DNA of 64,000 nt from Clostridia bacterium (GTDB taxonomy: Bacteria; Bacillota; Clostridia; UBA1212; UBA1255). The stretch is taken from assembly GCA_017560765.1 (NCBI GenBank), contig JAFZEI010000015.1, positions 397 to 64,396 on the forward strand, in the 5' to 3' direction. A model generated the notes under the pieces. The model did no database searches. It was not told the DNA's origin and saw only the letters and a program-made list of their open reading frames with translations. The position numbers and the translations under genes were made by a program. This document shows, piece by piece, positions 15,427 to 64,000 of this stretch (positions are counted from its first letter, which is position 1; the number at the start of each line of letters is the position of its first letter).

Positions 15427-15474
15427 TTATTATTAGCAAAATTATTTCATTGAAACAGAAAATTAATGTAAATT

Positions 15475-16143: not shown

Positions 16144-16161
16144 TATATATCTTTTCCTTTC

Positions 16162-17382: not shown

Positions 17383-17400
17383 ATTATCCTCCCACAAAAT

Positions 17401-19669: not shown

Positions 19670-19694
19670 TATAATACCTTCTTCTGTTTATAAA

Positions 19695-20918: not shown

Positions 20919-20925
20919 TCTTAAA

Positions 20926-23657: not shown

Positions 23658-23674
23658 AAATTCCCCTTCTTGAT

Positions 23675-24703: not shown

Positions 24704-24715
24704 ATTTTCCTCTTT

Positions 24716-26309: not shown

Positions 26310-26327
26310 TTTTACTTACTCCTTTCT

Positions 26328-27732: not shown

Positions 27733-27739
27733 ATATCTC

Positions 27740-28519: not shown

Positions 28520-28523
28520 CGCC

Positions 28524-29813: not shown

Positions 29814-29842
29814 ATAAATTCTCCTCATTTATACAGTTTCTG

Positions 29843-30613
29843 TTATATAGTTATTCTTTCTCCCACAGTCATAAACATAAAATTATTATTTGGATATTGT
29901 TCTTTCATAATGTGGTAAAATTTCCCGGGATTTCCTCCATGGCACGGAAACATTCCGTAATGACTGGGAATAGTAATTTTGGGCTGTAACGCATTACTTA
30001 AATCTGCACAATCCTGTTCATTTAAATTGCCAAATGCTCCGTTTATCGGTGCAATCAACATATCTATTTCTCCAAAAGCCATATATTCTTCTGCTTTTTC
30101 AAGATGCAAACAAGTATCTCCGGCCATATATATTATTTTACCATCTACGGAAATTACCACTCCAAATGCATCCGGTGCGGCATCAGAATGATCGCAGCTT
30201 ACAAAATGCAAATCAAAACCATCCAAAGAGACGCTTTGTCCTGCTTTTACATAATGCACATTGCTTTCCTTCATTTGCAAACGTAAAACTTCTTCTCTGC
30301 ATCGTGTAGATGCAAAAAGCTTAGTATTGGGATTCGACATAAGCAGCGGTATAGAATCTATATCAAAATGGTCTACATGTGCATGAGTTGTTATCAAATA
30401 ATCAAATTCTATATCAAAAGCACCAAATAATTTAGGGAGCATTCTTTTAAAACCAATATTACCTTCAATTCGCTCTACACATTCCGACAAATACAAATCT
30501 ATGCCTAAAAGCTTCCCGTATTTATTTTTTATTATATACCCCGCCTGTCCCACATAAAAAAGATGTGTTTCTCCAAGCCGTGCAGACATAACATTTGTTA
30601 CGAAATCATTCAT
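29843..30613 (-). CDS. Metallo-beta-lactamase-fold hydrolase
   Basis: THAHVDHFD (HxHxDH), a later CDH, and GD/H motifs. Length 256 aa. Confidence 0.8.
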   Translation of the reverse strand: MNDFVTNVMSARLGETHLFYVGQAGYIIKNKYGKLLGIDLYLSECVERIEGNIGFKRMLPKLFGAFDIEFDYLITTHAHVDHFDIDSIPLLMSNPNTKLFASTRCREEVLRLQMKESNVHYVKAGQSVSLDGFDLHFVSCDHSDAAPDAFGVVISVDGKIIYMAGDTCLHLEKAEEYMAFGEIDMLIAPINGAFGNLNEQDCADLSNALQPKITIPSHYGMFPCHGGNPGKFYHIMKEQYPNNNFMFMTVGERITI

Positions 30614-30629
30614 AAACTATAATACCTAC

Positions 30630-31253
30630 CTATACAGTATTTTGTGACTCTACGTATTCAGCAAAATCCTCCATTGTAACAGAAGTTTCTGAGGATATTC
30701 CTTCCCGCTTAAAAACTGCAGCTACAGTTTTGAAAAGAATTTTTATATCCAATAAAAGGGAAACATTATTCACATAATATAAATCTAATTGAAATCGTTC
30801 CTCCCAAGACAGTAAGTTCCTGCCATTTGCCTGTGCATACCCTGTTAATCCCGGCCTTACATCATGTCTGTGTTTTTGTTCTTCTGAATAGTATGGCAAG
30901 TATTTTACCAATAAAGGCCTGGGGCCGACAATTGACATATCGCCTTTTAATATATTTATTAATTCCGGTAGCTCATCGAGAGAAGATGCTCTCAAAAACT
31001 TTCCATACGGGACCAATCTTTCTTCATCCGGTAAAAGATTATCGTTCGTATCTTTCTCGCAAGTCATTGTCCTGAATTTAATAAGCTTAAAAACCTTCTC
31101 TTTTTTACCCGGTCGTGGTTGTACAAAAAAAGGATTGCCTTTCATAACAATAGCTCCTGCGACAATCATGATTATTATAATCGGCGAAAAAACAATTAAG
31201 GCAGATAAAGAAAAAACAAAATCAAGTATACGTTTAATAAACTTTATGTACAT
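30630..31253 (-). CDS. Small monotopic phosphoglycosyl transferase (PglC/WbaP-C-terminal type, initiating sugar-phosphate transferase)
   Basis: One N-terminal hydrophobic helix, KLIKFRTM, DELPELINILKGDMSIVGPRP and RPGLTGYAQ. Confidence 0.9.
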   Translation of the reverse strand: MYIKFIKRILDFVFSLSALIVFSPIIIIMIVAGAIVMKGNPFFVQPRPGKKEKVFKLIKFRTMTCEKDTNDNLLPDEERLVPYGKFLRASSLDELPELINILKGDMSIVGPRPLLVKYLPYYSEEQKHRHDVRPGLTGYAQANGRNLLSWEERFQLDLYYVNNVSLLLDIKILFKTVAAVFKREGISSETSVTMEDFAEYVESQNTV

Positions 31254-31254
31254 A

Positions 31255-32442
31255 TTAAAAACAACTCTTTATTATCTCAATTACAACATCTTGCTCTTGC
31301 TCTGTCATTTTTATATCACTGGGCAAGCACAATCCCCTATTAAATATATCTTCACATACACAAAAATTATCAGCTTGTACAACACCACAATTTTTAAATA
31401 CAGGTTGCATATGCATCGGCTTCCATATTGGTCTCGACTCAACATTGTACGAAGCCAATTTTTCGCGAATTTCCTCAGGACAAGACTTTCCTTTTTCGCT
31501 AATATATGTAAATTCCTTTTCTTGGCGAATTTGCTTGCACATTGCTTCTTTATCAATAATTATGCAACTAAGCCAATAATTTGGTTCCATTCTTTTCTCA
31601 TCATAAGGATTCATTTTTAAAGGAAGATTCTTTAAACCTTCTTTGTATCTTTCATATATAGCCTTTTTGGCTTTTACATGCTCATCAAGATGTAATAATT
31701 GTCCTCTGCCTATCCCGGCAAGGACATTGCTTAATCGATAATTGTACCCCACAATCTCATGCTGATACCATGGAGCATCTTCTTTTGCTTGTGTAGACAT
31801 CTTTCTTGCCAAGTCTATGGCGTTTTTATCATTGCTTAATAACATTCCGCCGCTACTGCAAGTAATAATTTTGTTTCCGTTAAAGCTTATTACACCATAA
31901 TCTCCATAGTTGCCCGTTTGTACTCCTTCAAAAGTTGCACCTAAAGACTCCGCCGCATCTTCAATCAAAACAGCATTGTGTCTTTTGCAGATAGCTTTTA
32001 TTTCGTCTAATTTTGCAGGCACGCCATAAAGGTTCGTCACAATAACAGCCTTTGCATCACCGTAAATCTCAAAAGCTCTTTCAAGTGCTTTCGGATCCAT
32101 ATTCCATGTTTCTGTTTCGCTATCAATAAAAACAGGCTCTGCTGCTTCATAAACAACGGGATTTACCGTTGCAATAAAAGTCATATCCATACAAAAAACT
32201 TTATCTCCCGGTTTAACACCGGCTAATTTAACTGCTAAATGCAAAGATGTTGTTCCTGAAGACAATGCCAAAGAGTAATGACATCCTACTTTATCACAAA
32301 TTGCTTGCTCTAATTGATTTATATTTTCACCCAATGTGCTGACCCAATTTGTATCAAAAGCTTCATCAACAAAAAGTCGTTCCTCAGAATGCATCGTAGG
32401 TGTTGCTAGCCATATTTTTTTATCAAAGGGTTTAATTACCAT
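31255..32442 (-). CDS. DegT/DnrJ/EryC1-family sugar aminotransferase (PglE-like)
   Basis: Fold type I PLP enzyme. SFNGNKIITCSSGG (PLP-Lys context) and LCLPSD near the C-terminus. Confidence 0.9.
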   Translation of the reverse strand: MVIKPFDKKIWLATPTMHSEERLFVDEAFDTNWVSTLGENINQLEQAICDKVGCHYSLALSSGTTSLHLAVKLAGVKPGDKVFCMDMTFIATVNPVVYEAAEPVFIDSETETWNMDPKALERAFEIYGDAKAVIVTNLYGVPAKLDEIKAICKRHNAVLIEDAAESLGATFEGVQTGNYGDYGVISFNGNKIITCSSGGMLLSNDKNAIDLARKMSTQAKEDAPWYQHEIVGYNYRLSNVLAGIGRGQLLHLDEHVKAKKAIYERYKEGLKNLPLKMNPYDEKRMEPNYWLSCIIIDKEAMCKQIRQEKEFTYISEKGKSCPEEIREKLASYNVESRPIWKPMHMQPVFKNCGVVQADNFCVCEDIFNRGLCLPSDIKMTEQEQDVVIEIIKSCF

Positions 32443-32446
32443 TTTT

Positions 32447-34477
32447 TCACCTTACTATCTTAGTTTGCTCCTGACAAATCGAATCATTCTCAATAAAATT
32501 CGAGTTACCCGCAGGCTTATACGTAGTTACAATTTTCATAACCATTTCTCTTACATCATCATCTCTGTTTTCAAAGCACGCCTTCATTAAAAACTGTAGC
32601 TGATGCAAAAACTTATCCGTATCAAAATTTATAGGCTTTCCTATATGTATAAGTTTATTGGGAGTACTTGTTATACCCTCTTCAGCCATAAGCTTCTCCT
32701 CAAAAAGCTTCTCTCCCGGCCTTAAACCAATATATTCAATTTTAATATTAACATCAGGAATATAACCTGACAATTTAATTAAATTTCTCGCTAATGTATC
32801 AATTTTCATCGGAGAACCCATATCCAAAACAAAGATTTCTCCGCCCTTCGCATACGTTTCTGCCTGCAGAACGAGAGAGACAGCCTCCGGAATAGTCATA
32901 AAATAACGTATTATATCAGGATGTGTAACTTTTACAGGTCCACCGTTTGCAATTTGTTTTTTAAACAAAGGAATTACAGACCCGTTGCTGCCCAAAACAT
33001 TACCGAAGCGCACAGCAACAAATTCCGTATGAATCTCTCCGGGATGTTTACACGGCATTTTAAATTCCCCATCCTCATCCTCAACATGAGCCTGTATAAC
33101 AGGAAGCTCGTCCGCTCTGCCTTCCTTAATAAGCTTATCAAAAGACTGAATTATCATCTCGCACAAACGCTTGCTGGCGCCCATAATATTTGTTGGGTTA
33201 ACCGCCTTATCTGTCGAAATCAAAACAAAGCGTTTGCAACCATTCATAATAGCAGCATATGCTGTCTTGTATGTTCCGATGGCATTATTTTTTATAGCTT
33301 CGCAAGGGCTACTCTCCATAAGAGGAACATGCTTGTGTGCCGCAGCATGGAAGACAATTTCAGGCTTGTACTTATTAAAAACCTGGTTTAACTTACGGCT
33401 GTCTCTGACTGAGCCTATAAGCACCACAAGATTTAATCCGTAACACGTTTCCTTAAGCTCTTGCTCTATATCATAAGCATTGTTCTCATAAACATCAAAA
33501 ATTATCAACTGCTTAGGTGCATGTTTTGCAATCTGTCTGCACAACTCACTGCCAATTGAACCGCCGCCGCCTGTAACAAGAATTACCTTTCCGCTCAACT
33601 GACGGAAAATGTCACTCATTTCTACCTTTATCGGTTCTCTTCCCAAAAGATCTTCCACCGCAATATCCTTCATGGCAGCAACAGAAACATCACCGTTAAC
33701 AAGCTGGTATAAGCCGGGCAGATTTTTTACTTCGCATTTTGTGTTTTGGCAAATATTAAGTATTTCACTTTTGACTTCGGCAGAACAACTGGGAATAGCA
33801 AAATATATCTTCTCTATATTGTACTTTTCTACATTTACTAAAATATCGTCACGTCCGCCTACTATCGGTACGCCATCAAGATATCTTCCCCATTTACTGC
33901 TATCGTCATCAATTATACAGCAAACAACATCCTTGATTGTTGTTGCTCTTTTAACATCCTGTAAAATCATTTGTCCTGCAGAACCGGCACCAATCAGCAT
34001 AACTTTTGAAAAACCTGCCCCTGAGGTATTTTTTATTGCACTGTTTCTTTGTAACAGAATAAAACGATATCCAAAACGCACTGTAATCAAGAAAACAAAC
34101 TGTATTATTGAGCCAAATAAATGATATGAAAAAATCATTTGTTTAAAAATAACTGTAATTCCTATCCAGTGAGCAACAGAAGTAATAATTGATGCCAATA
34201 AAATTCTGGAAAACTCATTAAAACTTGCATATCTCCACAAGCTGCGATAAAGTCTGAGCAAAAAGAAAATAACAATGCAAAAGACAGAATATATCGGTGC
34301 AAATTTTGCAAACGGTTCTAAATATCCACTGCTTTCTACCAAAGAAAACTTACAGTCAAATCTAAACCACAATCCTAAAAAATATGATAAATTAACAGCA
34401 ATCACATCATAAAAAACAAGTAATATCGCTGCATAATTAATAGATTTTTTTTGTTCAATCGATTTGTTGTTATTCAT
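32447..34477 (-). CDS. Membrane-bound UDP-GlcNAc 4,6-dehydratase (CapD/PglF-like)
   Basis: Four N-terminal TM helices, LIGAGSAGQ, LVTGGGGSIGSEL and STDKAVNPTNIMGASKR. The start is set at ATG 34477 (AAGGAGG 6 nt upstream). The track ORF's extra 57 codons lack support. Confidence 0.9.
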   Translation of the reverse strand: MNNNKSIEQKKSINYAAILLVFYDVIAVNLSYFLGLWFRFDCKFSLVESSGYLEPFAKFAPIYSVFCIVIFFLLRLYRSLWRYASFNEFSRILLASIITSVAHWIGITVIFKQMIFSYHLFGSIIQFVFLITVRFGYRFILLQRNSAIKNTSGAGFSKVMLIGAGSAGQMILQDVKRATTIKDVVCCIIDDDSSKWGRYLDGVPIVGGRDDILVNVEKYNIEKIYFAIPSCSAEVKSEILNICQNTKCEVKNLPGLYQLVNGDVSVAAMKDIAVEDLLGREPIKVEMSDIFRQLSGKVILVTGGGGSIGSELCRQIAKHAPKQLIIFDVYENNAYDIEQELKETCYGLNLVVLIGSVRDSRKLNQVFNKYKPEIVFHAAAHKHVPLMESSPCEAIKNNAIGTYKTAYAAIMNGCKRFVLISTDKAVNPTNIMGASKRLCEMIIQSFDKLIKEGRADELPVIQAHVEDEDGEFKMPCKHPGEIHTEFVAVRFGNVLGSNGSVIPLFKKQIANGGPVKVTHPDIIRYFMTIPEAVSLVLQAETYAKGGEIFVLDMGSPMKIDTLARNLIKLSGYIPDVNIKIEYIGLRPGEKLFEEKLMAEEGITSTPNKLIHIGKPINFDTDKFLHQLQFLMKACFENRDDDVREMVMKIVTTYKPAGNSNFIENDSICQEQTKIVR

Positions 34478-34674
34478 CTTTTGCCTCCTTTTCTTTAATA
34501 CTTTTTTATTTCTTTTTTGTATGCTTCGCCAACCTAAACATATATTAATTTTGTTTAGATGCTTTTGTAAAAAATATATCTTTTTGTTGTCTGAAACGAG
34601 CGTAAAGCTACGATTTAAGACAAAACAAAAGTCATACAAAAAAAGCACAAACAGAACAAACCATTCGCTGTTTA

Positions 34675-45389: not shown

Positions 45390-45650
45390 ATGAAATCAAC
45401 AGGAATTGTAAGAAGAGTAGACAAATTAGGACGCATAGTAATTCCAATGGAGTTAAGAAAGGTGTTGAATATTTCAAATCGCGATGCAATAGAAATATTT
45501 TCTCAAGATAATACACTCATATTAAGAAAATATGAGCCTTCATGTATTTTTTGCGGTAACGCCACAAATGTAACAACATACAAGGGCATTAATATATGTC
45601 CGGAATGCATCATGAGGATGCAAAAATATATAAAAAAGAACGCAGTTTAA
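45390..45650 (+). CDS. abrB: AbrB/SpoVT-family transition-state regulator with a C-terminal CxxC...CxxC zinc-ribbon-like tail
   Basis: MKSTGIVRRVDKLGRIVIPMELRKVLNI (swapped-hairpin AbrB domain), then CIFCGN...CPEC. RBS is AAGGAGG. Confidence 0.88.
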   Translation: MKSTGIVRRVDKLGRIVIPMELRKVLNISNRDAIEIFSQDNTLILRKYEPSCIFCGNATNVTTYKGINICPECIMRMQKYIKKNAV

Positions 45651-49845: not shown

Positions 49846-50268
49846 TTATTTTTTAGCTGCTTTCGGTACCTTAGCACCGTACTTTGATCTACCCTGCATA
49901 CGGTTGTTAACACCTGCTGTATCAAGAGTACCTCTGATAATATGGTATCTTACACCAGGGAGATCTTTAACTCTACCGCCTCTTATAAGAACAACGCTAT
50001 GCTCTTGAAGGTTATGTCCGATACCCGGAATATATGCAGTAACTTCCATACCGTTTGTGAGACGTACTCTGGCAATTTTACGCAAAGCAGAGTTAGGTTT
50101 TTTAGGTGTAGTTGTTCTTACAACTGAACAAACTCCTCTCTTTTGCGGACTGCTGATGTCAGTGCTTCTCTTTGTTAAGCTGTTAAAGCCTTTTTGAAGA
50201 GCAGGAGAAGTGGACTTCTTTTCAATTGTCTGTCTACCCTTACGAACCAATTGGTTAAATGTTGGCAT
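49846..50268 (-). CDS. rpsL: 30S ribosomal protein S12
   Basis: [12 protein letters not shown]...[10 protein letters not shown]...[11 protein letters not shown]. Confidence 0.99.
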
Positions 50269-50344: not shown

Positions 50345-50373
50345 ATTGTACACGAGACAATGCTTATTGTCAA
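50345..50373 (-). promoter_or_regulatory. Sigma-A promoter of rpsL-rpsG-fusA
   Basis: Minus strand reads TTGACA (50373-68), N17, TACAAT (50350-45). Confidence 0.65.
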
Positions 50374-50384: not shown

Positions 50385-50424
50385 AAAAAATAACGGAGCC
50401 GATTATCGTGAAATAATCGGCTCC
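50385..50424 (-). terminator. Rho-independent terminator of the 1378-aa protein gene
   Basis: Perfect 12-bp stem GGAGCCGATTAT/ATAATCGGCTCC with a 6-nt loop, then GTTATTTTTT on the minus strand. Confidence 0.85.
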
Positions 50425-50450
50425 ATCTTTAAACGACTATTCGTTTGCAA

Positions 50451-53400
50451 TTATTTTGGAACTCTGTATGCAAAACGGAATTGGTTTGTACTCTTGTCTA
50501 TAGTCTCATACGAAGGTTGTACTGATCTTATTCTGGAATCACTACCCGCATCGTATCTATATGAGTAACCTCCATCATAGTCACTGGCAATAATGAATAC
50601 GTGTCTCGGATAGTTAGAATATGCAGGAGCAAAGCTTCCCGTATAACCAACGAATACAATATCACCTGCTTTAAGTGAACTCAGTGATGTTACCTTAGTA
50701 AATCCGTAGCGCAAAAGGAATGTTTCAAGACTGATAATATTTGCGCCGGAGTTACCGTAAAGTGAAAGTCCTTCTTTAGAAGGCTGATGTGCTGTATAGC
50801 CTGCATTACCCATGAGCCAACCTATAAATCTGTCACAAGATACATGCTTGTATGATTTGTCAAGATATGGGTTAACTGTAGAGTGTCCGTATACCCAGCC
50901 ATTTACTCTTGCATAGTCTGCAACAGATTTAGCATGAGTAAGAAGTTTTGCAACTTTCTGTCCGTGTTTAGCATAAACAAATGCACCGTTTTGATCATAT
51001 ACTGCATAACCTGTTGTTGAATTCTCATTTGCTTTTGCAACCGCAGCATTATAATCAGTATATACTCCGCCGATTTGCGCACCTAAATCATTCTTTACAT
51101 ACCATGAAATATTTTCTGCTGTTCTATCTGCTATAAAGAAGCGTTGATTTTCTTCGCCATAGTAAGTATAGAGTTGAACATTTGTTCCGCTTGTGTAATC
51201 TGCATTAGAAACATCCAAAGCCATTTTGTCACAATGAGCAGGACGGAAAGCATATGTTGTTTCTTGAATATACAGGTACCATTGCTGAGAAAGGCTATCA
51301 TTGCAGTTCTCCGTAACAATATTTGTTACATCTGTCACACCGGCTCCGCTTACAGCCAAAGCTTTATCATTACTCTCGTTGACAATTCTGTAAGCACCAT
51401 TGTCAAGTCGTATGAATTTCCAAAGTTGACTTGATGAAGCAGCCGGAGTAGCAAGCTGAACATTAGTACCTGAAACAGCAAGAGATTTACCTCCAACAGT
51501 TATATGCGCAAAGAAATTCGTACCAACATCTGCAGGCGTCAATTTATTAAATGTACTTGTTTGTGTATTCAAATAATTTACTGCAGCGTCACCATATTTA
51601 ATTATTTTTTCAGTGATATCAACGAGTTTTGCATCTGTACCACTCTGTGATGAATAAACATACGACTCAATGCTATATTCAAATGTTCCGCTTATTGCTT
51701 TACCAGTACTGTCACAAACAGTGAGTTTCACTGTTTTGCTCATCTGCGATGCACCTAATCCATCAAAAACAAATGCATATACAGGTGTACCGGCAGGTCC
51801 TGTTACAGTTGAAAAGGCATCTTGTTTTACAGTTCCCAACAAATTATTGCTTGTATCCGTTACCTTAACATATACATTTGATAAATCTGTATCAAAATAT
51901 CCTTTGATTGCAACTTTATTATCAAGATAAAGTCCCATCGCTAACCAAGTAGCTTTATCGCCGGAAGCTACAGTAGGCGCTTTTTTCACATTTGTGAGAG
52001 CTCTTAAATCACTTGTGCCAAATTTCTTCTGAGCTGTTGTCAAATTTGCACTAACAAGTTTGTCTACATTATATCCATTATAAATCTGTGCTGATGCTCC
52101 GTAATTAAGCATATCAACAAGCAATGTCTTAAAAGATGGATCCGTTGCCGATGCAAGTTTAGAATAAATATATGTAGCCACACTATATTGGTTCGTCTTA
52201 CTTGAATATACAACTCCGTCTTTAGTTGCTTTTAATGTTGTAAAAATAGCGTCGTTCATCATCTGAGGCGCCACGTTGTTAAATGAGAATAAATAACAAG
52301 CAACTCCGCCGACAGAGGATGTTACTGGATTAAGAGTAATTGTTTTTCCGCCAAAAGTCGCCTCAAGATAAGGATTTGAAAAACCTGCAGCATCAAAGAT
52401 ATCTTTCTTTACAAGATATTTAATTGTAATATCACTTGAAATTGAAAGTGTTGTACCATCAATTTTAAGTGCAGTGTCTTTTACTTTAACAAAACCAGAG
52501 TCTGTTATAAATTGGTCTGTAATATCAGAAGAACCTGATGTTGCACTGTTTACAGTAACCATTACATCGTTATCGCCCAAATTAGCGTTACTGTTTACTT
52601 TAAACTCTATGTAAGCAATAGTTCCGGTTGCTGTTGTGTTAGCAGTACCTTTCCAAGATAATTCATATGAATATGTTGTTTTTGTTGCTTTGAAAACAGC
52701 ATTTCCCATTACGATACCATTTGTCGCTTTTACTGGAGTCAAAACGCTTGGATCCCATTTTACATTAACTACAAGATTCTTTAATCCGGGGTTATTTCCT
52801 AATACAACAGGAACTTTTACCGTGCCGCCAATATTTGCCTCAACATCATCTGCATATATATCAGCCGATTTTGCAACATCAGTCACTGTAAAATATACCT
52901 TGCTGCCTTTTGGAGAAGTGTCTCTCATTATTACAGCATAGTAGTTACCTGCTGAAAGCCTCGGCAAGGAAACTGTCTTTTCGCCGCTAAGATTAATTCT
53001 GTGCATAGGATTTGCCGTTCCCATACCTGAACCGCACTCTTCACCATCATTATAGATACCCAACCAAAGATTGCTTGTAATTGAATCTCCGTAATTAATT
53101 GTTGCTTTAAGATTTCCTGTTTCGCTTACAGTAGTTGAATTAAGTGTAAGAGAAGGATCTACCGTACCTTCATATCCATAATATATGTTATCAATATTAA
53201 ATGCTCTGAAGCGAGAACCAATTGCCATAGATTTTACATAAGAAATCATTGCATTTGATGTTGTAGCCTTTAAATTGCCATTTGCATCATAAATAGTTGC
53301 TGTTCTGTAATATCTCTCGTTATATGCGTCTGATGAGCTTGGTAAAAGACCGGGATCAGCATAAGTTACAAATGCAAATACTTCTCCGTCAAGAGCAAAT

Positions 53401-54587
53401 CTCATTTTTCCACGTCCGTCATCTATCGCTTTGAATTTATGGAAAGCTGTATCAATATAACTTGTGAGCGGATGTGTGTATTTTATTTGAGACAAAGTTC
53501 CCGAAGCTGCATTATATGTTATTACACAAACTTCAATCATAGAAGGATGAATATTTACACTTACACCACTCTTACCTACAGAGTTTTCTCCGTCCACTTT
53601 ATTTGATTCGAAAAACTTATTGTCTTTCCAATCTTTTTCATAGCCATAATTGAATACAAATCCTGCAAAGTGACCAGCTGCTGTTTCCGGCTTTACATCT
53701 GCTGAGAATAAATAAGCACATCCGTTATTGAAGAATTTATTTACCTGCATACTGTCATATTTCAACTTAAGGTACTTATTTGTTCCTTCTACAACGTATT
53801 CGGAATCTCCTGTTCCTGCATTAAACAAGAATTCACCATTAATATTTGTTTTGCTTCCGATAAGTGCAAGACCATTCGTTACTGCAGCTTCTTGGAAATC
53901 ATATGATGTCTTTGGTACATAATGCAAACCATGAGGTATAATGTCAACTCTGCCGGATTTTACATCTGTATAAACCTTACAGAACAAATCATCATATTCT
54001 TGTGCCTGTGCTACACTGTCAAAGAAACCTATATATGCCACATCAACTGTTTTGCCTGCAACTGATGACGCACCGATTCTCATTGATGTAATTGTAGCAT
54101 TAAGCTGTGCTGATGTACCAACAGAACTTGTTGACGAACCCATTAACTCTTTTGATAAGTTGTATGTGGTAAGATTCCATACGCCGTCGCAAACCAGCTT
54201 GCTGGTAGATATAACTCCGCCTGCGGCAGGACCCCAACCACCGGCTGTTGTATCGGGATAAAGCCAAGGGTTACTGATTGATGTATTAATATCTCCCTTG
54301 TACTTAATTGCCATAATCTTACCGCTCATGCTTGTATCTACAAGATTTACTGTAAAATACGGGTCGTTAGCATCTGTCGTTTTAATGGAAACATACTCAT
54401 CTTTGTATGTGTATGTTATTCCACTCGACGATGTATCAATAATTAGTTTGTGATTACCTTCCGCAAAAGATGTTACTCCCTTGTATGAACTCAGCTCCGC
54501 TGCCAACAATACATTAGTTGAGGGCAACATACTAAATACCATCACAAAAACAAGTAACAGCGAAAGAAACTTCATTCCTCGTTTCAT
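50451..54587 (-). CDS. Large secreted multidomain protein. Order: signal peptide, shared N-terminal domain, ConA/LamG-like region, cohesin-like domain, duplicated about 140-aa module, ricin-type beta-trefoil lectin, C-terminal NlpC/P60-like cysteine peptidase
   Basis: RBS is AAAGGAGAG. Signal peptide MKFLSLLLVFVMVFSMLPSTNVLLAAE. Cohesin-like residues about 575-700 (GGTVKVPVVLGNNPGLKNLVVNVKWDPSVL...GTIAYIEFKV). Ricin-like residues about 1025-1155 (QLWKF, QQWYL and ENQRFFI as QxW-type repeats). The C-terminus has HVSCDRFIGW plus GDIVFVGY...PRHVFII (Cys/His of papain-like NlpC/P60). Confidence 0.8.
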   Translation of the reverse strand: MKRGMKFLSLLLVFVMVFSMLPSTNVLLAAELSSYKGVTSFAEGNHKLIIDTSSSGITYTYKDEYVSIKTTDANDPYFTVNLVDTSMSGKIMAIKYKGDINTSISNPWLYPDTTAGGWGPAAGGVISTSKLVCDGVWNLTTYNLSKELMGSSTSSVGTSAQLNATITSMRIGASSVAGKTVDVAYIGFFDSVAQAQEYDDLFCKVYTDVKSGRVDIIPHGLHYVPKTSYDFQEAAVTNGLALIGSKTNINGEFLFNAGTGDSEYVVEGTNKYLKLKYDSMQVNKFFNNGCAYLFSADVKPETAAGHFAGFVFNYGYEKDWKDNKFFESNKVDGENSVGKSGVSVNIHPSMIEVCVITYNAASGTLSQIKYTHPLTSYIDTAFHKFKAIDDGRGKMRFALDGEVFAFVTYADPGLLPSSSDAYNERYYRTATIYDANGNLKATTSNAMISYVKSMAIGSRFRAFNIDNIYYGYEGTVDPSLTLNSTTVSETGNLKATINYGDSITSNLWLGIYNDGEECGSGMGTANPMHRINLSGEKTVSLPRLSAGNYYAVIMRDTSPKGSKVYFTVTDVAKSADIYADDVEANIGGTVKVPVVLGNNPGLKNLVVNVKWDPSVLTPVKATNGIVMGNAVFKATKTTYSYELSWKGTANTTATGTIAYIEFKVNSNANLGDNDVMVTVNSATSGSSDITDQFITDSGFVKVKDTALKIDGTTLSISSDITIKYLVKKDIFDAAGFSNPYLEATFGGKTITLNPVTSSVGGVACYLFSFNNVAPQMMNDAIFTTLKATKDGVVYSSKTNQYSVATYIYSKLASATDPSFKTLLVDMLNYGASAQIYNGYNVDKLVSANLTTAQKKFGTSDLRALTNVKKAPTVASGDKATWLAMGLYLDNKVAIKGYFDTDLSNVYVKVTDTSNNLLGTVKQDAFSTVTGPAGTPVYAFVFDGLGASQMSKTVKLTVCDSTGKAISGTFEYSIESYVYSSQSGTDAKLVDITEKIIKYGDAAVNYLNTQTSTFNKLTPADVGTNFFAHITVGGKSLAVSGTNVQLATPAASSSQLWKFIRLDNGAYRIVNESNDKALAVSGAGVTDVTNIVTENCNDSLSQQWYLYIQETTYAFRPAHCDKMALDVSNADYTSGTNVQLYTYYGEENQRFFIADRTAENISWYVKNDLGAQIGGVYTDYNAAVAKANENSTTGYAVYDQNGAFVYAKHGQKVAKLLTHAKSVADYARVNGWVYGHSTVNPYLDKSYKHVSCDRFIGWLMGNAGYTAHQPSKEGLSLYGNSGANIISLETFLLRYGFTKVTSLSSLKAGDIVFVGYTGSFAPAYSNYPRHVFIIASDYDGGYSYRYDAGSDSRIRSVQPSYETIDKSTNQFRFAYRVPK

Positions 54588-54649
54588 AAAAACTCTCCTT
54601 TTTTAAAATTTTATAGGTTTGATATCAACAAAAACCTTCATTTGGTATT

Positions 54650-54678
54650 ATGATATATTACAAATATTTTTTTGTCAA
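54650..54678 (-). promoter_or_regulatory. Own sigma-A promoter of the 1378-aa protein gene
   Basis: Minus strand reads TTGACA (54678-73), N17, TATCAT (54655-50), directly downstream of the rpoC terminator. Confidence 0.6.
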
Positions 54679-54679
54679 T

Positions 54680-54713
54680 AAAAAAAGCCGCACAACCTTT
54701 TAAGTTGTACGGC
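54680..54713 (-). terminator. Rho-independent terminator of rpoC
   Basis: Minus strand reads GCCGTACAAC-ttaaaag-GTTGTGCGGC followed by TTTTTTT. The only non-Watson-Crick pair is U-G on this strand, whereas it is a C-A mismatch on the plus strand. Confidence 0.85.
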
Positions 54714-54731
54714 CAAAACACTATTTGTATT

Positions 54732-57700
54732 TTAATCTTCGTCAGGTTCATTACTATCGTCAAGATAGATATTACCATCTACAACATCGTATTGCTCTTC
54801 AACAGAAACTTCTGTATCTGCATCCTCTGCAACAACTTCATCTGTTACTTCAACGTAATCTTCCTCTTTTAACTCTTCTCCCGGCTTTCTTTGAAGAGCC
54901 TCCACATCAATCTCGATATCTTTATAACGGCTCATACCTGTACCGGCAGGAATAAGTTTACCGATAATAACGTTTTCTTTAAGACCAAGAAGCGGATCTC
55001 TCTTACTCTTAATAGCCGCCTCAGTAAGAACTCTTGTAGTTTCTTGGAAGGAGGCTGCTGAAAGGAAAGATTCTGTTGCAAGAGATGCCTTTGTAATACC
55101 AAGAAGTGTTCTGCTTCCTGTAGCCTCTTTCTTGCCCTCTGCTGCCATTTTTTCATTTTCAATATTAAATGTTGTAATATCAACCATGCTACCCGGCAAA
55201 AGTGAAGTATCTCCTACATCGTCAACTTTAATTTTGCGGAGCATTTGTCTTACAATTACCTCGATATGACGGTCGTTAATTTTAACACCCTGCATATTGT
55301 ACACTTTTTGTACTTCTTCAATGATGTAATTTTGTACGCCGGTCACACCAACAACTTTTAATATATCATGAGGATTAATGGATCCTCCGACAAGCATATC
55401 GCCCTTCTTGATAAAATCTCCATCTTTTACACGAAGGTTTGTACCCATTACAAATGAATATGTTGCTGACATACCATCCTCAGAAGTAACCGTAACTTCA
55501 CGCTTTTTACCGGAATCATTAATAGAAACAGTACCGTCAAGTTCGGAAATAGTTGCATTTCCTTTTGGTTTTCTTGCCTCGAACAACTCTTCAACTCTCG
55601 GAAGACCTTGAGTGATATCGTCCGCTGTAGCAACACCACCCGTATGGAATGTACGCATGGTAAGCTGTGTACCGGGCTCACCGATTGATTGAGCAGCAAT
55701 GATACCAACTGCATCACCCACATTACACTCTTCGTTTGTTGCAAGGTTAGAACCATAACACTTAGCACAAACACCATGCTTACACTTACAAGTAAGAACT
55801 GAGCGAATTTTCACAGTTGTATGACCTGCGGCAACAATCTTTTCAGCAAGTTCCTCTGTAATCAATGTGTCGCGGTCAGCGAGAATTTCACCTGTGCTTG
55901 GGTCAACAATGGTTTCAGCCGGATAACGTCCGGAAATACGTGCAGCCAACGGAACAATAGGTCCTTGCTCCTTTGCGTCCGGATTTTCTATAGCAGAAAT
56001 TTCTATATGATCCTCTGTGCCGCAATCATGCTCACGAATAATTACCTCTTGGCTGACATCAACAAGACGTCTTGTCAAATAACCTGAGTCAGCTGTTCTA
56101 AGAGCCGTATCTGACAATGTTTTTCTTGTACCGTGGCTGGAGATAAAGAACTCCAATACGTCAAGACCTTCACGGAAGTTTGCCTTAATCGGGATTTCGA
56201 TAGACTTACCTGATGTATCTGTCATAAGACCACGCATACCTGCAAGCTGCTTAATCTGGTTAATGTTACCTCTGGCTCCTGAATCACTCATCATATTAAT
56301 CGGGTTATATTCACCCATGTTCTTTTTGAGGATTGCAGTAAGCTTTTCTATTGTCTCTGTCCAAGCTTTAATAACATTGTTATAACGCTCTTCTTCTGTG
56401 ATAAGACCTCTTCTGTATTGTTTTACAATCTTATCAACCAATTTATCTGTCTCATCAATGAGCTGTTGTTTTTCGGGAGGAACAATAATATCCTCAATAC
56501 CTACTGTAATAGCACCTTTTGTAGAGAATTTATATCCCAATGCCTTAATTTTATCAAGTACAACTGCTGTCTCGGTAATACCGTGAACCTTAATACATTT
56601 ATCAAGAATTTCACCCAATGTACCTTTTTTTACCAACTTGTCGATTTCAAGAACGAGAGCATTTTCTCTCTTTGTTCTATCAACAAATCCCAAATCCTGA
56701 GGAATAGCATCGTTAAAAATCAACTTACCTATTGTTGTATTTATACGCTGAGTAATAGGTTCGCCCTCAAACTCACCAAATCTTCTTACAATAATAGCTG
56801 TATGCAAGTCGATTTGTCCGATATCATATGCCATCTTAGCTTCGTCATACGAAGCGAAAACAGGAGCATTTGTATAATCTTTATTTTTATTAAGTGTCAA
56901 ATAATAACTACCGAGAACCATATCCTGTGTAGGAACTGTAATCGGTTTACCATCCTTAGGAGCAAGCAAATTGTTTGCGGAAAGCATAAGAACTCTTGCC
57001 TCTGCCTGTGCCTCTGCTGAAAGAGGTACGTGAACAGCCATCTGGTCTCCGTCAAAGTCAGCATTGTACGCTGTACATACCAACGGATGCAAACGAAGAG
57101 CACGACCTTCAACGAGAACAGGTTCAAAAGCCTGAATACCAAGACGGTGAAGTGTAGGCGCACGGTTCAAAAGAACAGGATGCTCCTTGATAATATCTTC
57201 AAGAATATCCCATACCTCCGGACGAACACGATCAACCATTTTACGTGCACTCTTAACATTCAAAGCCTTACCGTCATTAACAAGTTTTCTCATAACAAAA
57301 GGCTTAAACAACTCAAGCGCCATTTCTTTAGGAAGTCCGCACTGGTAAATCTTAAGCTCAGGACCTACGACAATAACGCTACGTCCTGAATAGTCAACAC
57401 GTTTACCGAGAAGGTTTTGACGGAAACGTCCCTGCTTACCGCGAAGCATATCTGACAAAGACTTAAGAGGTCTTGTGTTAGGTCCCGTAACAGGACGTCC
57501 TCTTCTGCCATTATCAAGCAAAGCATCAACAGCCTCCTGGAGCATTCTCTTTTCGTTTCTTACAATGATATCGGGAGCTCTTAATTCTTTAAGTCTCTTT
57601 AATCTGTTGTTTCTGTTAATAACACGTCTGTAAAGATCGTTAAGGTCAGATGTTGCAAATCTGCCACCTTCCAACTGTACCATCGGACGAAGATCCGGTG

Positions 57701-58439
57701 GGATTACAGGCACTACGGAAAGTACCATCCACTCCGGCTTATTGTGAGATTGACGAAAAGCTTCTACAACTTCAAGTCTCTTTATGAGACGCATTTTCTT
57801 TTGGCTTATTGTCTGTCCGCCTTTTTCTTTCTCAACATCAGTAAGATGATCAACTTCTTCTCTTAATTCTACAGAAAGTTTCTCAAGGTCAACTTCTGAC
57901 AAAAGCTTTTGAATAGCCTCTGCACCCATCTGAGCTGTAAAGCTTTGATAACCATACTGATTTACAGCATCTCTGAACTCACGTTCTGACAAAACCTGTT
58001 TGTATTCAAGTGCCGTTGTGCCGGGGTCAGTTACGATATATGCTGCGAAATAGAGAACCTTTTCCAATGAACGAGGAGCCATGTCCAAAATCAAGCCCAT
58101 TCTGCTGGGGATTCCTCTAAAGAACCAAATATGTGATACAGGAGCTGCAAGCTCTATGTGACCCATTCTTGTTCTTCTTACCTTTGAACTTGTAACCTCA
58201 ACGCCACACTTATCACAAACTATTCCTCTATATCTGTTTTTCTTATATTTACCGCAATGACATTCGCCATCCTTTGTGGGTCCAAATATTTTTTCACAGA
58301 AAAGACCGTCTTTCTCGGGTTTAAGAGTTCTGTAGTTAATTGTTTCCGGCTTCTTAACCTCTCCGTGAGACCATTTTAAAATTGTCTCCGGTGATGCAAG
58401 GCCAATCTGTATTGAATCAAAATTATTAAAATCTATCAC
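54732..58439 (-). CDS. rpoC: DNA-directed RNA polymerase subunit beta-prime
   Basis: [12 protein letters not shown] catalytic motif and a zinc-binding CHCGKY...CDKCG. GTG start with AAGGAG 8 nt upstream. Acidic C-terminal tail. Confidence 0.99.
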
Positions 58440-58461: not shown

Positions 58462-61400
58462 TTATTCCGAATCGGTATCGCCTGAAATTCCTACGAAAAC
58501 GTCAGCATCCAAAGCTGTACCCTCTTCGTCGAAATCCCCAACTGCAACATCGACAGTATCATCAAAATCGTCATCATGGAGAACATCTTCCTGTGTATCG
58601 ATGTCGTTGCCCATAAATATTGCACCTGACTCATCTGTAAAAGTCTGGAAATCAGGATTATATACATCCTTCTTTGTTCTGTACTTTTCAGGATTCTTAA
58701 TATAGTCTTCTTCTGCTTCCTTAAGCGGAATTTCTGTATTATCGTCAGTAAAGATACGAACATCAAGAGCCAAACTCTGAAGTTCTTTTACCAATACCTT
58801 AAATGACTCAGGTATACCCGGCTCAGGAACGTTCTCTCCTTTTACAATTGCTTCGTATGTTTTTACACGACCGATAGTGTCATCTGACTTAATTGTAAGA
58901 ATCTCTTGCAATGTATAAGCTGCACCATAAGCCTCCAAAGCCCAAACCTCCATCTCACCGAAACGCTGTCCGCCGAATTGTGCCTTACCACCCAAAGGTT
59001 GCTGTGTTACCAAAGAGTAAGGACCTGTTGAACGTGCGTGGATCTTATCGTCAACCAAGTGATGGAGTTTAAGGTAGTACATATAACCAACGGTTACAGG
59101 ATTGTCAAAAGGCTCACCTGTACGTCCGTCATAAAGTGTTGTCTTACCATCGGGACTCTTTCCTGCTAATTTAAGAGTTTCAATGATGTCATGCTCTGAC
59201 GCACCGTCAAATACAGGCGTAGCAATCTTCCAGCCTAAAGCTTTTGCAGCATAACCCAAATGCACTTCAAGAACCTGACCGATATTCATACGAGAAGGAA
59301 CGCCCAAAGGATTCAATACGATTTCCAATGGTGTACCGTCAGGAAGGAAAGGCATATCTTCCTCAGGAAGAATTCTTGAAATAACACCCTTGTTACCATG
59401 ACGTCCGGCCATTTTATCACCAACAGAAAGTTTTCTCTTCTGTGCAATATAAACTCTTACCATACGGTTAACGCCGGGAGAAAGTTCATCATCATTTTCG
59501 CGAGTAAATTCTTTAACATCAACAACGATACCTGACTCTCCATGAGGAACCTTCAACGAAGTGTCTCTAACGTCTCTGGATTTTTCACCGAAAATTGCAC
59601 GGAGCAAGCGCTCTTCTGCTGTAAGCTCAGTCTCACCCTTCGGAGTTACTTTACCTACAAGAATATCTCCTGCGTGAACCTCAGAACCAACAATAATTAC
59701 ACCGTTAGGATCAAGCATCTTCAATGCATCTTCGCCCACGTGCGGAATCTCAGCTGTAATTTCTTCGGGTCCCAGCTTTGTATCTCTTGCTTCACACTCA
59801 TATTCCTCTATATGAATAGAAGTGTATATATCTTCTTTAACTAACTTTTCACTAATAAGAACGGCATCCTCGTAGTTGTAACCTTCCCAAGTCATAAAGC
59901 CAATCAATGCATTGTGACCCAAGGCAATTTCTCCCTTGTCTGTAGAAGGACCATCTGCAATTACATCTCCTGCTTTTACTTCCTGTCCAAATGTTACAAC
60001 CGGCTTTTGATTAATACATGTGCCCTGATTTGAACGCATATATTTAAGCAGTGTATATTTATCCTCTGTGCCATCTTCTCTTCTGATAGTGATATATTTA
60101 CCGGTTACATCTGTTACAACACCATCATATTTTGAAAGTACAACAGCTCCGGAATCTCTTGCAGCCTTGTACTCAATACCGGTAGCAACGATAGGTGCCT
60201 CAGAACGCATAAGCGGTACTGCCTGACGCTGCATGTTAGAACCCATAAGCGCACGGCTGGCGTCGTCGTTTTCAAGGAACGGAATCATTGCAGCTGCAAC
60301 TGATACAACCTGCTTAGGTGATACGTCCATGTAATCTACGCGTTCGCCTTCAATTTCAAGGAATTCATCGCGGAAACGGCAAACAACTTTACGATTCATA
60401 AAGTGTCCTTCTTCATCCAAAGGCTCATTTGCCTGAGCAACAATATATTTATCCTCTTCATCAGCCATAAGATAGTCAATCTTGTCTGTAACACGCTTTG
60501 TAATAGGATCATACTTTCTATACGGAGCTTCAATGAAACCGTACTCATTGATTCTCGCGTATGTACTTAGCGAGCCAATCAAACCGATATTAGGACCTTC
60601 CGGTGTCTCAATAGGACACATACGACCATAGTGTGAATAGTGTACGTCACGTACATCAAACGTAGCTCTTTCACGATTAAGACCTCCGGGACCCAAGGCA
60701 CTGAGTCTTCTCTTATTGGCAAGCTCTGCCAACGGGTTTGTCTGATCCATAAATTGTGACAACTGGCTGGAACCAAAGAACTCTTTAATTGCTGCTGTCA
60801 CAGGTCTCGTATTAATGAGCGCTTGCGGTGTAACAACATCCTTTTCTTGCATTGCCATACGCTCGCGTACAATTCTCTCCATTCTGGAAAGACCAATACG
60901 AACTTGATTTTGGAGAAGCTCTCCTACCGAACGGATTCTTCTATTGCCCAAATGGTCTATATCATCTGTCTTGCCCAAATCGTACTGAAGATTTAATATA
61001 TAGCTAAATGACGACAAAATATCATCAAGTGTAAGATGCTTCGGTTGGAGATCGTTTACTCTCTCTTCGATTAATTTTTTAAGAACCTCTTCATCTCCCT
61101 CAGCTGCTTCTAAAATCTCGCTGAGTACCGTGAAGTTTACTCTCTCCGTGATACCTAATTCCTTAACATCAAATGTAACGTATTTAGTAATATCAACTGT
61201 GTTATTACCTCTAACTTTAACAGGTCTGTAAGGAGTATTTATTATAACAACATTTACGCCGCTGTCTTGGATTTCTACAGCCTTCTCCTCTGTCAAAACT
61301 TCACCTGCTGATGCAATAACCTCACCTGTACTTGTATTAATAACATCTGCAGCAAGTGTCTTTCCTGTAATCTGTGAGAACAGAGAAAGCTTTTTATTAA

Positions 61401-62277
61401 ATTTATAACGACCCACTTTTGCCAAATCATATCTCTTTGCATCAAAGAACATACCATAAAGCAATGACTTTGCATTCTCTACCAAAGCAGGCTCTCCGGG
61501 ACGAAGTTTCTTATATATCTCAAGTAAAGCAGAATCTGTATCTTTTGTTACATCCTTAAGGAATGTGTTTAAAAGACGCTCATCAATAAGATCCTCGTCT
61601 ATGCCCTCTGCAAACTCAGGTGCGAGCTCGTCCTTTGATATTGCAAATAAATTTTGAATATCAACATTATCACTGTATCCGAAAGCACGCAGGAGAATAG
61701 TTGCGGGAATTTTTCTGTTTCTGTCAATTCTTACATAAATGACATCACTAAAATCAATTTCTGTTTCGAGCCATGCGCCTCTGTTAGGAATAAGTGTAGA
61801 AGCAGTGATATACTTGCCCTTTGTTTTGTCGTAATTTTTCTCAAAATACGCACCGGGGGAACGCACCAACTGGCTCACGATAACACGCTCAGCACCATTC
61901 ATAATAAATGTGCCGTTTTCTGTCATACGGGGAAGTTCACCAAAATAGAGAACATCCTCTTTTATGATGCCCGTTTCTTTGTCAACAACGCGCACACGCA
62001 CCTTTAAGGGCGAAGCATACGTTGCATCTCTTTCTTTACACTCTTCAATTGAATAGTTTGTTTTATTTTCGAGATAATAATCTACGAATTCCAACATCAA
62101 ATTTCCCGAGTAATCGGTGATTGGGGAAATATCCTTAAAGACTTCTTTCAAACCTTCGTCCAAAAAGTGCTGATATGAACTTTTCTGAACAGCAATCAGG
62201 TTTGGCATATCAAGAATTTCCTGTATTCTTGAATAGCTTTTTCTTTCACTCTGACCGTACATTACCGAATGCACCAT
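58462..62277 (-). CDS. rpoB: DNA-directed RNA polymerase subunit beta
   Basis: Full-length RpoB pattern ([13 protein letters not shown] rifampicin cluster I region, [13 protein letters not shown]). Acidic C-terminal extension of about 90 aa. Confidence 0.99.
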
Positions 62278-62591: not shown

Positions 62592-64000
62592 ACATCACAT
62601 TCTTTATGGTGTATTATCTATGTACCTCTCGTTCGCAGTAGAAATGAGGTATATATGGCTAAAAAAATACAAACTAATCAAAAACACTTGACACAGGACG
62701 ACAGAGTTACTATCGAAAAGTGTTTGGATGCAAAAACAACGCTGTGTCATATTGCACAAGAACTCGGAAAGGACCCTACTACTATTGCTAAAGAAATCAA
62801 AAAACATCGAACATTTCAACAGCATAACACTTTCAATGACAAGCCAAACCGTTGTGCATTAGCACCATCTTGTCACAGAAAAAATCTTTGTGAGATATTT
62901 GCTCCCATATGCAAAAAAGAATGCAAATATTGCCCGCGATGTCATAAACACTGTCCAGATTTTATTCCCTATGATTACCATTGTAAACTTACAGATAAAG
63001 CACCTTATGTTTGCAATGGTTGCCAGAAGAAAGCCCAATGTCGCTTAGATAAATATTTTTATCGGGCAACAAAAGCACAAAAGGAATACAAAACCATACT
63101 TTCAGAATCCAGAACAGGCATAAATCTTTCAGAAGAAGAATTGACTCTTCTGGACGAAACTATCAGTCCTCTAGTTCTGCAAGGACAATCTGTTTACATG
63201 ATACTTCAAAATCATCCCGAAATTACTTTGTGCGAAAAAACGATTTACAACTACATCGATTCGGGAGTTTTATCTGTAGGCAATCTTGAACTTCCTAAAA
63301 AGGTAAAATACAAAGTGCGTAAATCTCACGAAACTACAATAAATGATTCAGGCATTTTCGTCGGACGTACATACAAAGATTTTCTCGCTTTTATCAAAGA
63401 AAATCACGATATACGCATTACCGAAATGGATACTGTTTTAGGATGCGAAGGTAGCAAAAAGCTTCTCTTAACATTGCATTTTGGCGAGACCAATTTTATG
63501 ATGGCGTATCTTTTAGACTCAAAAGAAGCACGTGGTATAGAAGCTGTTTTCGATAGTATTAATTCCGCCCTCGGAACGCCTCTATTCTACAAATCAATGC
63601 CTGTAATACTCACAGACAGAGGTGGGGAATTTCGCCATCCCGACACACTTGAATGCAGCGTGGATAATTTAATCAGAACAAGTGTTTTTTATTGTGATCC
63701 TATGTCTTCGTGGCAGAAACCACATTGTGAAAAGAACCACGAATATATACGCAAAATCTGTCCGCAAGGCAAAACCTCTTTCGACAGATTAACACAAGAA
63801 GATGTAAATCTTATGATGAGTCACATTAACAGTTCATGCAGAGAAAGCCTCGGAGGTTTATCTCCTTTTGCTCTTGCAAAACTAATGTTACCAAAAGAAT
63901 TATTGTCATTTTTCAATTTAACGGAAATTCCTCCTGATGACATTATTCTTACGCCAAAGCTCTTAAAGGGTAAAATCGAAGTATGAATAAAAAATCACAG
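62592..64000 (+). mobile_element. IS30-family insertion sequence (left boundary approximate; right end at or beyond the window edge)
   Basis: Contains the IS30-type transposase ORF starting about 60 nt after the hairpin. The ends are not defined because no inverted repeat pair could be found inside the window. Confidence 0.6.
62655..63986 (+). CDS. IS30-family DDE transposase with a Cys-rich insert between the HTH and catalytic regions
   Basis: N-terminal HTH (LTQDDRVTIEKCLDAKTTLCHIAQELGKDPTTIAKEIKKH). Cys-rich block (CHRKNLC...CKKECKYCPRCHKHC...CNGCQKKAQC). DDE-type core (ITEMDTV, LTDRGGEF, KNHEYIRK). RBS is GAGG. Confidence 0.85.
   Translation: MAKKIQTNQKHLTQDDRVTIEKCLDAKTTLCHIAQELGKDPTTIAKEIKKHRTFQQHNTFNDKPNRCALAPSCHRKNLCEIFAPICKKECKYCPRCHKHCPDFIPYDYHCKLTDKAPYVCNGCQKKAQCRLDKYFYRATKAQKEYKTILSESRTGINLSEEELTLLDETISPLVLQGQSVYMILQNHPEITLCEKTIYNYIDSGVLSVGNLELPKKVKYKVRKSHETTINDSGIFVGRTYKDFLAFIKENHDIRITEMDTVLGCEGSKKLLLTLHFGETNFMMAYLLDSKEARGIEAVFDSINSALGTPLFYKSMPVILTDRGGEFRHPDTLECSVDNLIRTSVFYCDPMSSWQKPHCEKNHEYIRKICPQGKTSFDRLTQEDVNLMMSHINSSCRESLGGLSPFALAKLMLPKELLSFFNLTEIPPDDIILTPKLLKGKIEV

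Follow-up and report, generated by a model that had tools for sequence, protein, structure and literature searches.

We have analysed a 64,000-nucleotide stretch of the metagenome-assembled genome of an uncultured Clostridia bacterium (contig JAFZEI010000015.1, hereafter called the window) in which a large gene for a predicted exported protein is found between rpoC and rpsL. Firmicutes generally have rpsL next after rpoC, or separated from it by no more than a small L7Ae-like gene. In the window, rpoC (54732..58439) and rpsL (49846..50268), both on the minus strand, are separated by a 4137 nt coding sequence on that same strand (50451..54587), which according to the list of open reading frames (ORFs) and its translation starts with ATG and encodes a protein of 1378 amino acids (aa). 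Upstream of rpoC and also co-directional lies rpoB (58462-62277), and the gene order after rpsL is rpsG, fusA and tuf. The insert holds one coding-strand ORF of at least 80 aa, together with four ORFs of 86-124 aa on the opposite strand.

The gene is flanked by a complete set of expression signals, all on the minus strand. Directly 3′ of rpoC a pattern scan detected an intrinsic terminator (54686..54714) with a 13-bp stem and a U-tract, the hairpin having a folding energy of −18.9 kcal/mol (z −5.9 relative to shuffled sequences). It is followed by a sigma-70-type promoter, TTGACA-N17-TATCAT (54650..54678), which matches the consensus at 11/12 positions, and by a strong ribosome-binding site (RBS), AAGGAGAG (54593..54600), placed 5 nt before the ATG. 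At the other end the pattern scan found a terminator with a 16-bp stem and a U-tract (50392..50427; −24.1 kcal/mol, z −7.0 versus shuffles), and beyond it the consensus scan placed the promoter of rpsL and the str operon, TTGACA-N17-TACAAT (50345..50373), again with 11/12 matches. ORF, terminators and promoters are thus found within a few bases of where the original prediction had put them, except that the stem of the second terminator measures 16 bp instead of 12 bp. The promoters of the inserted gene and of rpsL are the top two promoter-like sites in 5.5 kb. Overall, 14 such sites were found versus 19.4 expected from shuffling, so that in the absence of any excess the promoter argument rests on the quality and position of the matches and not on their number. 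An Rfam scan of the entire window matched zero RNA families, indicating that no known leader or riboswitch precedes the inserted gene or rpsL, and the 5′ untranslated regions (UTRs) of both genes fold no better than shuffled sequence. From the arrangement of these signals we infer that the inserted gene is transcriptionally insulated from its neighbours.

The history of the junction can be read from related genomes. Looking up the exact sequence of the window's S12 returned 10 places. Eight conspecific contigs and L005, whose RpoC is 99.2-100% identical, carry the gene before rpsL, with a protein identity of 95.7-99%. Two further contigs, L009 and L012 (GC ~0.49), carry an identical S12 together with an RpoC and an EF-G that are 89% and 91% identical, respectively. 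In both, the gap between rpoC and rpsL is empty and measures 128 bp, and the downstream order is the same as in the window (MazE-like protein, two Gate proteins, RpiB, transketolase). An rpsL promoter homologous to that of the window, TTGACA-17-TAGAAT, begins 15-17 nt after the rpoC stop (L009 7872-8001; L012 7870-8001), and no intrinsic terminator was detected after rpoC in these contigs. The empty junction implies that the slot opened once the lineage of L009 and L012 had branched off, and it answers the question of rpoC-rpsL synteny in favour of an insertion and against a universal gene order. RpoC of L009 and L012 is 21 aa longer (1256 vs 1235 aa). The MazE/AbrB-type ORF (45390-45650, plus strand, 86 aa), which is divergent from tuf, keeps its position in all relatives, those with an empty site included. 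Since no toxin partner is visible, an AbrB/SpoVT-like regulator is more probable than an antitoxin.

Two other relatives show that the slot can accommodate more than one arrangement. In L007 (5633-14149; RpoC 94.6% identical) the gap between rpoC and rpsL holds two tandem copies of a family member, with 96.6% nucleotide identity over 4.3 kb, promoter and terminator included; their differences are concentrated in the C-terminal papain-like domain described below. The order of terminator, promoter, gene, terminator and rpsL promoter is kept around both copies, with TTGACA-17-TAAAAT as the promoters. In L001 (1-4100; EF-G 97.7% identical) the 3′ end of clpB is followed by two lipoprotein genes, a member of the family and then rpsL, so that rpoC no longer adjoins the str operon. 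The same papain-like domain forms the C-terminus of both lipoproteins (674 and 367 aa). The L001 family member is preceded by a terminator and a promoter (TTGACA-17-TAAACT) and followed by an rpsL promoter; between it and rpsL the pattern scan detected no terminator. The insertion postulated originally is therefore real relative to L009 and L012, but it is not private to this genome, since diverged and rearranged forms occupy the site in at least three congeneric species, so that the insert predates the species. An assembly artefact is ruled out by identical junctions in at least 10 independent assemblies.

Insertion sequences were seen at two places around the locus. In the conspecific contig L013 (1950-3660, corresponding to about position 54600 of the window) an IS110-family element, whose 429 aa transposase matches NF033542 at 237 bits, sits in the 5′ UTR of the gene immediately upstream of the RBS. 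Being placed between promoter and RBS, it uncouples the gene from its promoter and would constitute a natural expression variant. In the window itself, an ORF divergent from rpoB (62655-63986, plus strand, 443 aa) with an N-terminal HTH_38 domain encodes an IS30-family transposase, as already proposed; it scores 95 bits against NCBIfam NF033563, for which the cut-off is 80.

The composition of the inserted gene is that of its surroundings. Its GC content is 0.373 compared to a mean of 0.380 (standard deviation 0.033) for the genes of the window, its GC at third codon positions (0.255) is inside the window range, and in codon usage it lies at a distance of 0.48 from the bulk genes, the joint lowest value of the large ORFs listed. 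A repeat search found no direct or inverted repeats bracketing the insert, and no integrase, transposase or recombinase lies inside it. GC content and codon usage hence speak for a native gene and not for a recent import. Each of nine conspecific alleles is intact, with 4137 nt, and the ratio of non-synonymous to synonymous polymorphism (pN/pS) among conspecific alleles is 0.13 overall and 0.06-0.30 per domain, with 0.08 for fusA. The intact alleles and the low ratio rule out a pseudogene or decaying gene, and together these sequence comparisons indicate that the gene is native and maintained by selection.

The N-terminal part of the protein includes two domains without family assignment. All domains are given here with their coding positions on the minus strand. 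A plausible Sec-type signal peptide can be recognized in the sequence of the first ~30 residues (54498..54587), with MKRGMK at the start, a hydrophobic core and a terminal LLA/AE, and the family as a whole has kept this N-terminus. An AlphaFold2 prediction for aa 29-1160, made with 19 family sequences, was confident for most of the chain except aa 213-475. It shows a β-sandwich domain without family assignment at aa 31-205 (53973..54497), with a predicted local distance difference test score (pLDDT) of ~73-94. Adjacent to it is the core domain, aa 206-480 (53148..53972), the putative ‘ConA/LamG-like’ region of the original prediction. It is the most conserved part of the family and has the densest invariant columns, including the motifs HFAGFxFN and NERYYR that, with a final IDN, mark the domain. 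In this region pLDDT does not reach 50 between aa 213 and 340 and remains uneven as far as aa 475; what is modelled with confidence is all β-strand, and the terminal ‘IDN-I/L’ strand recalls ConA-like domains. The core domain had no Pfam match, and profile searches of the PDB with a shallow and then a deepened profile came back empty. Searched against 1.84 billion representative proteins, the core profile retrieved 113 clusters at E ≤ 0.001, so few that the core must be regarded as a rare, undescribed domain. Its relatives are mostly secreted proteins or lipoproteins of 300-800 aa, and 70 of them were inspected for accompanying domains: Dockerin_1 occurs in 8, Cohesin in 3, and others carry CBM6, CBM35, Amidase_2 or NAGPA, with one weak Laminin_G_3 match (1/70, E 0.003). 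The preceding domain (aa 31-205) adjoins the core in other proteins as well (9/111 representatives, dockerin-bearing ones included). An Ig-like β-sandwich at aa 481-573 (52869..53147), defined by its AlphaFold2 secondary structure (pLDDT ~82-90), completes this part.

In the central part, a type-I-like cohesin domain is predicted at aa 575-700 (52488..52865). The model shows the nine-stranded flattened β-sandwich typical of cohesins, and its nearest structural neighbours are type-I cohesins of cellulosomes. When the PDB was searched by sequence, there was a marginal cohesin match over aa 580-698 (E 0.09), and PF00963 is precomputed in 9/18 full-length homologues, so that the predicted fold and the homologues bear out the cohesin proposed at the outset. 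Between the cohesin and the lectin, aa 701-1015 (51543..52487) form two tandem modules, each a β-sandwich plus a helical hairpin, with the repeated sequence motif Y.YS...L..YG.AA..Y, a pLDDT of ~76-93 and no family assignment. The ricin-type β-trefoil lectin (CBM13-like; aa 1020-1157, 51117..51530) is the only domain that Pfam and NCBIfam recognize in the whole 1378-aa protein. PF14200 matches with 88 bits over aa 1032-1140 and exceeds its gathering score, PF00652 is also above threshold, and a PDB sequence search matches the region to ThreeFoil (8e-12). The β-trefoil fold is predicted, and the QxW repeats are represented by QLW (1054-1056), QQW (1101-1103) and a degenerate third, QRF (1148-1150), all of which agree with the lectin assignment made originally. 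Ricin/CBM13 domains bind Gal/GalNAc-type sugars, and cohesins bind dockerins.

The C-terminal module (aa 1158-1378, 50454..51116) comprises a small β-α-β-β subdomain followed by an NlpC/P60/CHAP-like papain fold, the predicted structure having the expected α+β organization. Two residues, Cys1251 and His1329, are invariant in 24 sequences; the first is the initial residue of model helix 94-104 and the second that of model strand 172-176. Asp1346 is likewise invariant and is a candidate for the third catalytic residue; hhalign pairs it with the third catalytic His of E. coli MepS, with a probability of only 3%. The relatives give sub-threshold Pfam matches to NLPC_P60 (5/24) and CHAP (3/24). The one PDB match in a sequence search with the C-terminal profile, NrdI, was judged to be due to chance, and it was the fold search that identified the papain-like domain. 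The C-terminal head is thus supported by modelling as a divergent NlpC/P60/CHAP-type cysteine peptidase, and the Cys/His peptidase of the original prediction holds at the level of fold and residues while being too diverged for a Pfam model. Strict conservation of Cys and His suggests an active peptidase and not a structural accessory. NlpC/P60 and CHAP domains are mainly peptidoglycan endopeptidases or amidases.

Stand-alone homologues of the papain-like domain also exist (P0019-P0027). They are without a signal peptide, and P0019, P0021-P0023, P0025 and P0027 carry a zinc-ribbon-like C-terminal tail of the form CxxC...CxxC. A peptidoglycan hydrolase would not be expected in the cytoplasm, which hints at possible other substrates of the papain-like family.

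In GenBank the 1378-aa protein is MBR5785259.1, a ‘RICIN domain-containing protein’. We found 18 full-length homologues, 43-98% identical and all from metagenome assemblies, none of which has a functional name, and a search of the literature on this domain combination and on changes of rpoC-rpsL gene order found nothing specific. No source names a function for the window protein, which agrees with the original view that its architecture is not that of a described protein. The protein is one of a small paralogous family of ~1400-aa exoproteins, found in uncultured gut Clostridia and diverging fast. One genome with a family member is a metagenome-assembled genome of Candidatus Egerieisoma, which belongs to GTDB order UBA1212, family UBA1255 (PMC8035907). 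The organism of the window presumably falls in this order too. The first ~1150 aa are common to the family and consist of the two-domain N-terminal module, the Ig-like domain, one cohesin, the two β-sandwich plus helices modules and the ricin trefoil; this body is 45-70% identical. The C-terminus is modular. It is papain-like in the window protein and about 10 others, papain-like with an extra domain in P0005 and P0008, of the DUF4886/SGNH esterase type in P0002 and P0012-14 (31.5 bits, cut-off 26.7), and another domain without family assignment in P0004. Copies are also found at unrelated loci (L002, L006, L008). A neighbour-joining tree of the shared body places the three rpsL-adjacent occupants in three different subclades; their mutual identity is 51-52%, while each is closer (70-74%) to a copy elsewhere in another genome.

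These data lead us to lean, with some reserve, towards a lineage-specific insertion of a cassette that encodes a surface-associated, lectin-targeted hydrolase of peptidoglycan or the envelope. As far as function can be read from sequence, such a lectin-targeted action on peptidoglycan or the cell envelope appears most likely. According to this model, a complete cassette consisting of terminator, promoter, RBS, gene and terminator would have been inserted between rpoC and the rpsL promoter. Its near-consensus promoter would make expression independent of rpoBC, and the two terminators would keep rpoBC and the str operon transcriptionally separate. After Sec-dependent export, the lectin and the N-terminal module could place the protein on a glycan-bearing surface, which might be the cell's own envelope or that of a neighbour, where the cohesin would dock it to a dockerin-type partner and the cysteine peptidase may cut stem peptides of peptidoglycan or a related amide bond. 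In paralogues with an SGNH head, the targets would then be acyl or acetyl groups on substrates of this class. In this model the slot upstream of rpsL behaves as a hot spot, where family members have been duplicated, supplemented or possibly replaced in sister species.

Several observations weigh against this interpretation. The Pfam Cohesin model has no match in the 1378-aa protein at E ≤ 1, nor do PF00877 (NLPC_P60) and PF05257 (CHAP), so that both assignments rest on predicted structure. A regular expression for the dockerin calcium loop matched nowhere in the 64-kb window and 18 flanking loci, and a recognizable cell-wall anchor (LPXTG, SLH or cell-wall-binding repeats) was not seen. Papain folds can also be acyltransferases, deamidases or inactive binding modules, and the protein might have its true functional centre in aa 206-480, where conservation is highest. 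Furthermore, since the occupants belong to three subclades, a single ancestral insertion is not proven, and repeated insertion or replacement of the cassette are equally possible. A single insertion followed by very fast divergence is a possible explanation of the tree.

A rather unlikely alternative, to which we nevertheless give some weight, is that the protein is a cellulosome-like or glycan-foraging adaptor, or mini-scaffoldin, whose cohesin recruits dockerin enzymes while CBM13 and the N-terminal module bind dietary or host polysaccharide. The resemblance of the cohesin to cellulosomal type-I cohesins would fit, as would the company of the core domain, which is associated with Dockerin_1 in 8/70 relatives and with CBM6 and CBM35 in others and is carried, together with the N-terminal domain, on dockerin-bearing proteins. 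In addition, one paralogue adjoins GH77 and SASA genes. The papain-like domain would in this case be an accessory module, like the one known from cellulosomal proteins of Ruminococcus flavefaciens. However, the protein has a single cohesin where a scaffoldin would have several, no glycoside-hydrolase domain occurs in any family member, and the regular expression detected no dockerin in the window or flanks. The strict conservation of the catalytic Cys and His also fits poorly with a structural accessory.

The swapping of C-termini on a conserved 1150-aa body is what would be expected of a polymorphic toxin or bacteriolysin, in which the body delivers interchangeable warheads, here a peptidoglycan peptidase or an esterase, to competitors, the lectin reads target glycans and an arms race drives divergence. 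The divergence of the occupants to 52-54% identity between species whose RpoC is ~95% identical points in the same direction, and so does the change in copy number at the L007 locus. Against this, the neighbours are rpsL and rpoC and no adjacent immunity-like gene was found. Pfam and NCBIfam searches detected no LXG, RHS, WXG, PT-TG or similar trafficking domain, leaving the Sec signal as the sole export feature. The same papain-like domain is present in ordinary lipoproteins and in the cytoplasmic zinc-ribbon proteins, SGNH/DUF4886 is not a typical toxin head, and conspecific alleles are under purifying and not diversifying selection in every domain (pN/pS 0.06-0.30). We therefore regard a toxin as improbable.

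It is with similar scepticism that we view an extended interpretation, in which the rpsL gap is a dedicated hot spot for expressing and diversifying the family, whose complete promoter-gene-terminator cassettes are duplicated there or recombined with paralogues. The family would then form, with the dockerin-bearing proteins that have the same undescribed N-terminal module, an unrecognized non-cellulosomal surface system of uncultured gut Clostridia. Exchange of cassettes with paralogues elsewhere would explain why the occupants fall in three subclades. If this were true, a cohesin-dockerin surface system would present interchangeable cell-wall-active enzymes.

The two remaining explanations have very little in their favour. 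A recently acquired foreign island or mobile-element cargo in the rpoC-rpsL spacer, which the IS30 transposase upstream of rpoB, the IS110 element beside the gene in one conspecific contig and the self-contained cassette with its own promoter and terminators might suggest, is largely refuted and most improbable, because GC and codon usage are indistinguishable from those of the bulk genes of the window, no integrase, transposase or flanking repeats were found in or around the insert, three species of the clade have an occupied slot, and the IS110 element is a secondary 5′ UTR insertion in one strain only. An ancient synteny, in which the gene would always have stood between rpoC and rpsL in the family as ordinary gene order, agrees with the finding that each of the three species nearest to the window has it before rpsL, but is equally hard to maintain in view of the empty 128-bp junction in two relatives with identical S12 and the same downstream order, and of three occupants that belong to different subclades of the family.

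Returning to the preferred model of an inserted cassette for a surface hydrolase, each recognizable part of the protein has known counterparts from which it differs in specific ways. As in the NlpC/P60 (MEROPS C40) and CHAP hydrolases, among them CwlO and LytE of B. subtilis, Acd24020 of C. difficile and the endolysin Lys2972, the Cys is found at the N-terminus of a helix and the His at the start of a β-strand, in the usual GD(I/L)VF ... H(V)x(I) context. Unlike these enzymes, the present domain has an SCDRF motif in place of DCSG and remains below the threshold of Pfam models; its putative third residue is the Asp of an invariant RYDAGS that follows a loop longer by 5 residues, a β-α-β-β subdomain of its own precedes the papain fold, and it is joined to cohesin, ricin and novel modules and not to LysM, SH3b or a coiled coil. 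A single nine-stranded cohesin within a large secreted multimodular protein is also found in GH84C/NagJ and GH33 of C. perfringens, ScaC of R. flavefaciens and CaCohA2 of C. acetobutylicum, and the toxin and enzyme complexes of C. perfringens use cohesins outside cellulose degradation. The combination of the cohesin with a peptidase head and a ricin lectin, and a divergence that makes it invisible to Pfam, set the present protein apart from the known cohesin proteins. The lectin shares its β-trefoil, QxW repeats and above-threshold PF14200/PF00652 matches with botulinum HA33 and the CBM13 of C. thermocellum 1,3Gal43A; in contrast to these it is a single trefoil between helical modules and a peptidase, and its third QxW is degenerate. 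As for the locus, the L7Ae-like gene ybxF/rplGB of Bacillus is a lineage-specific occupant of the same gap. That gene is small, ribosome-associated and co-transcribed with its neighbours, whereas the gene described here encodes an exoprotein, spans 4.1 kb and has its own promoter and terminators, and the content of the slot varies between sister species. The recognizable modules hence belong to known fold families, and there is precedent both for multimodular cell-wall hydrolases that are secreted and for cohesin proteins outside cellulosomes; what is new is the particular architecture, the two domain families that lack a model, and the location and dynamics of the locus.

Two other regions of the window may be mentioned in this context. 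About 20 co-directional ORFs on the minus strand (15400-34650) include a Polysacc_synt_2 (CapD/WbpM-like) ORF at 32447-34648, the sole ORF of the group that was scanned. The cluster might direct the biosynthesis of a surface polysaccharide and is a possible source of the glycan recognized by the lectin. Also on the minus strand, an ORF of 735 aa with a GH94 catalytic domain (6923-9130) overlaps by 68 nt an ORF of 1826 aa (9063-14543) that contains GT2-like, glucoamylase-like and GH94 supersandwich domains; the two resemble a giant cyclic β-1,2-glucan synthase/GH94 phosphorylase gene that is split, either by a frameshift or genuinely.

Few gene adjacencies in bacteria are as stable as that of rpoBC with the str operon, and the present locus provides a clean and datable case of its opening, with empty as well as occupied sites. 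Once opened, the slot has evolved fast, as witnessed by a tandem duplication, the addition of lipoprotein genes, an IS110 insertion and the loss of the adjacency to rpoC. No principle is overturned by these findings, and their value is that they offer a well-delimited target for annotating microbial ‘dark matter’ by structure and biochemistry. Pfam lacks a model for at least two of the domain families, namely the 275-aa core and the divergent NlpC/P60-like domain, the latter being present also in stand-alone lipoproteins. The occupant of the slot defines an unnamed exported family of uncultured gut Clostridia that combines a cohesin and a lectin with swappable catalytic heads. Should dockerin partners of this cohesin exist, the range of cohesin-dockerin assembly would come to include cell-wall-active enzymes of gut anaerobes.

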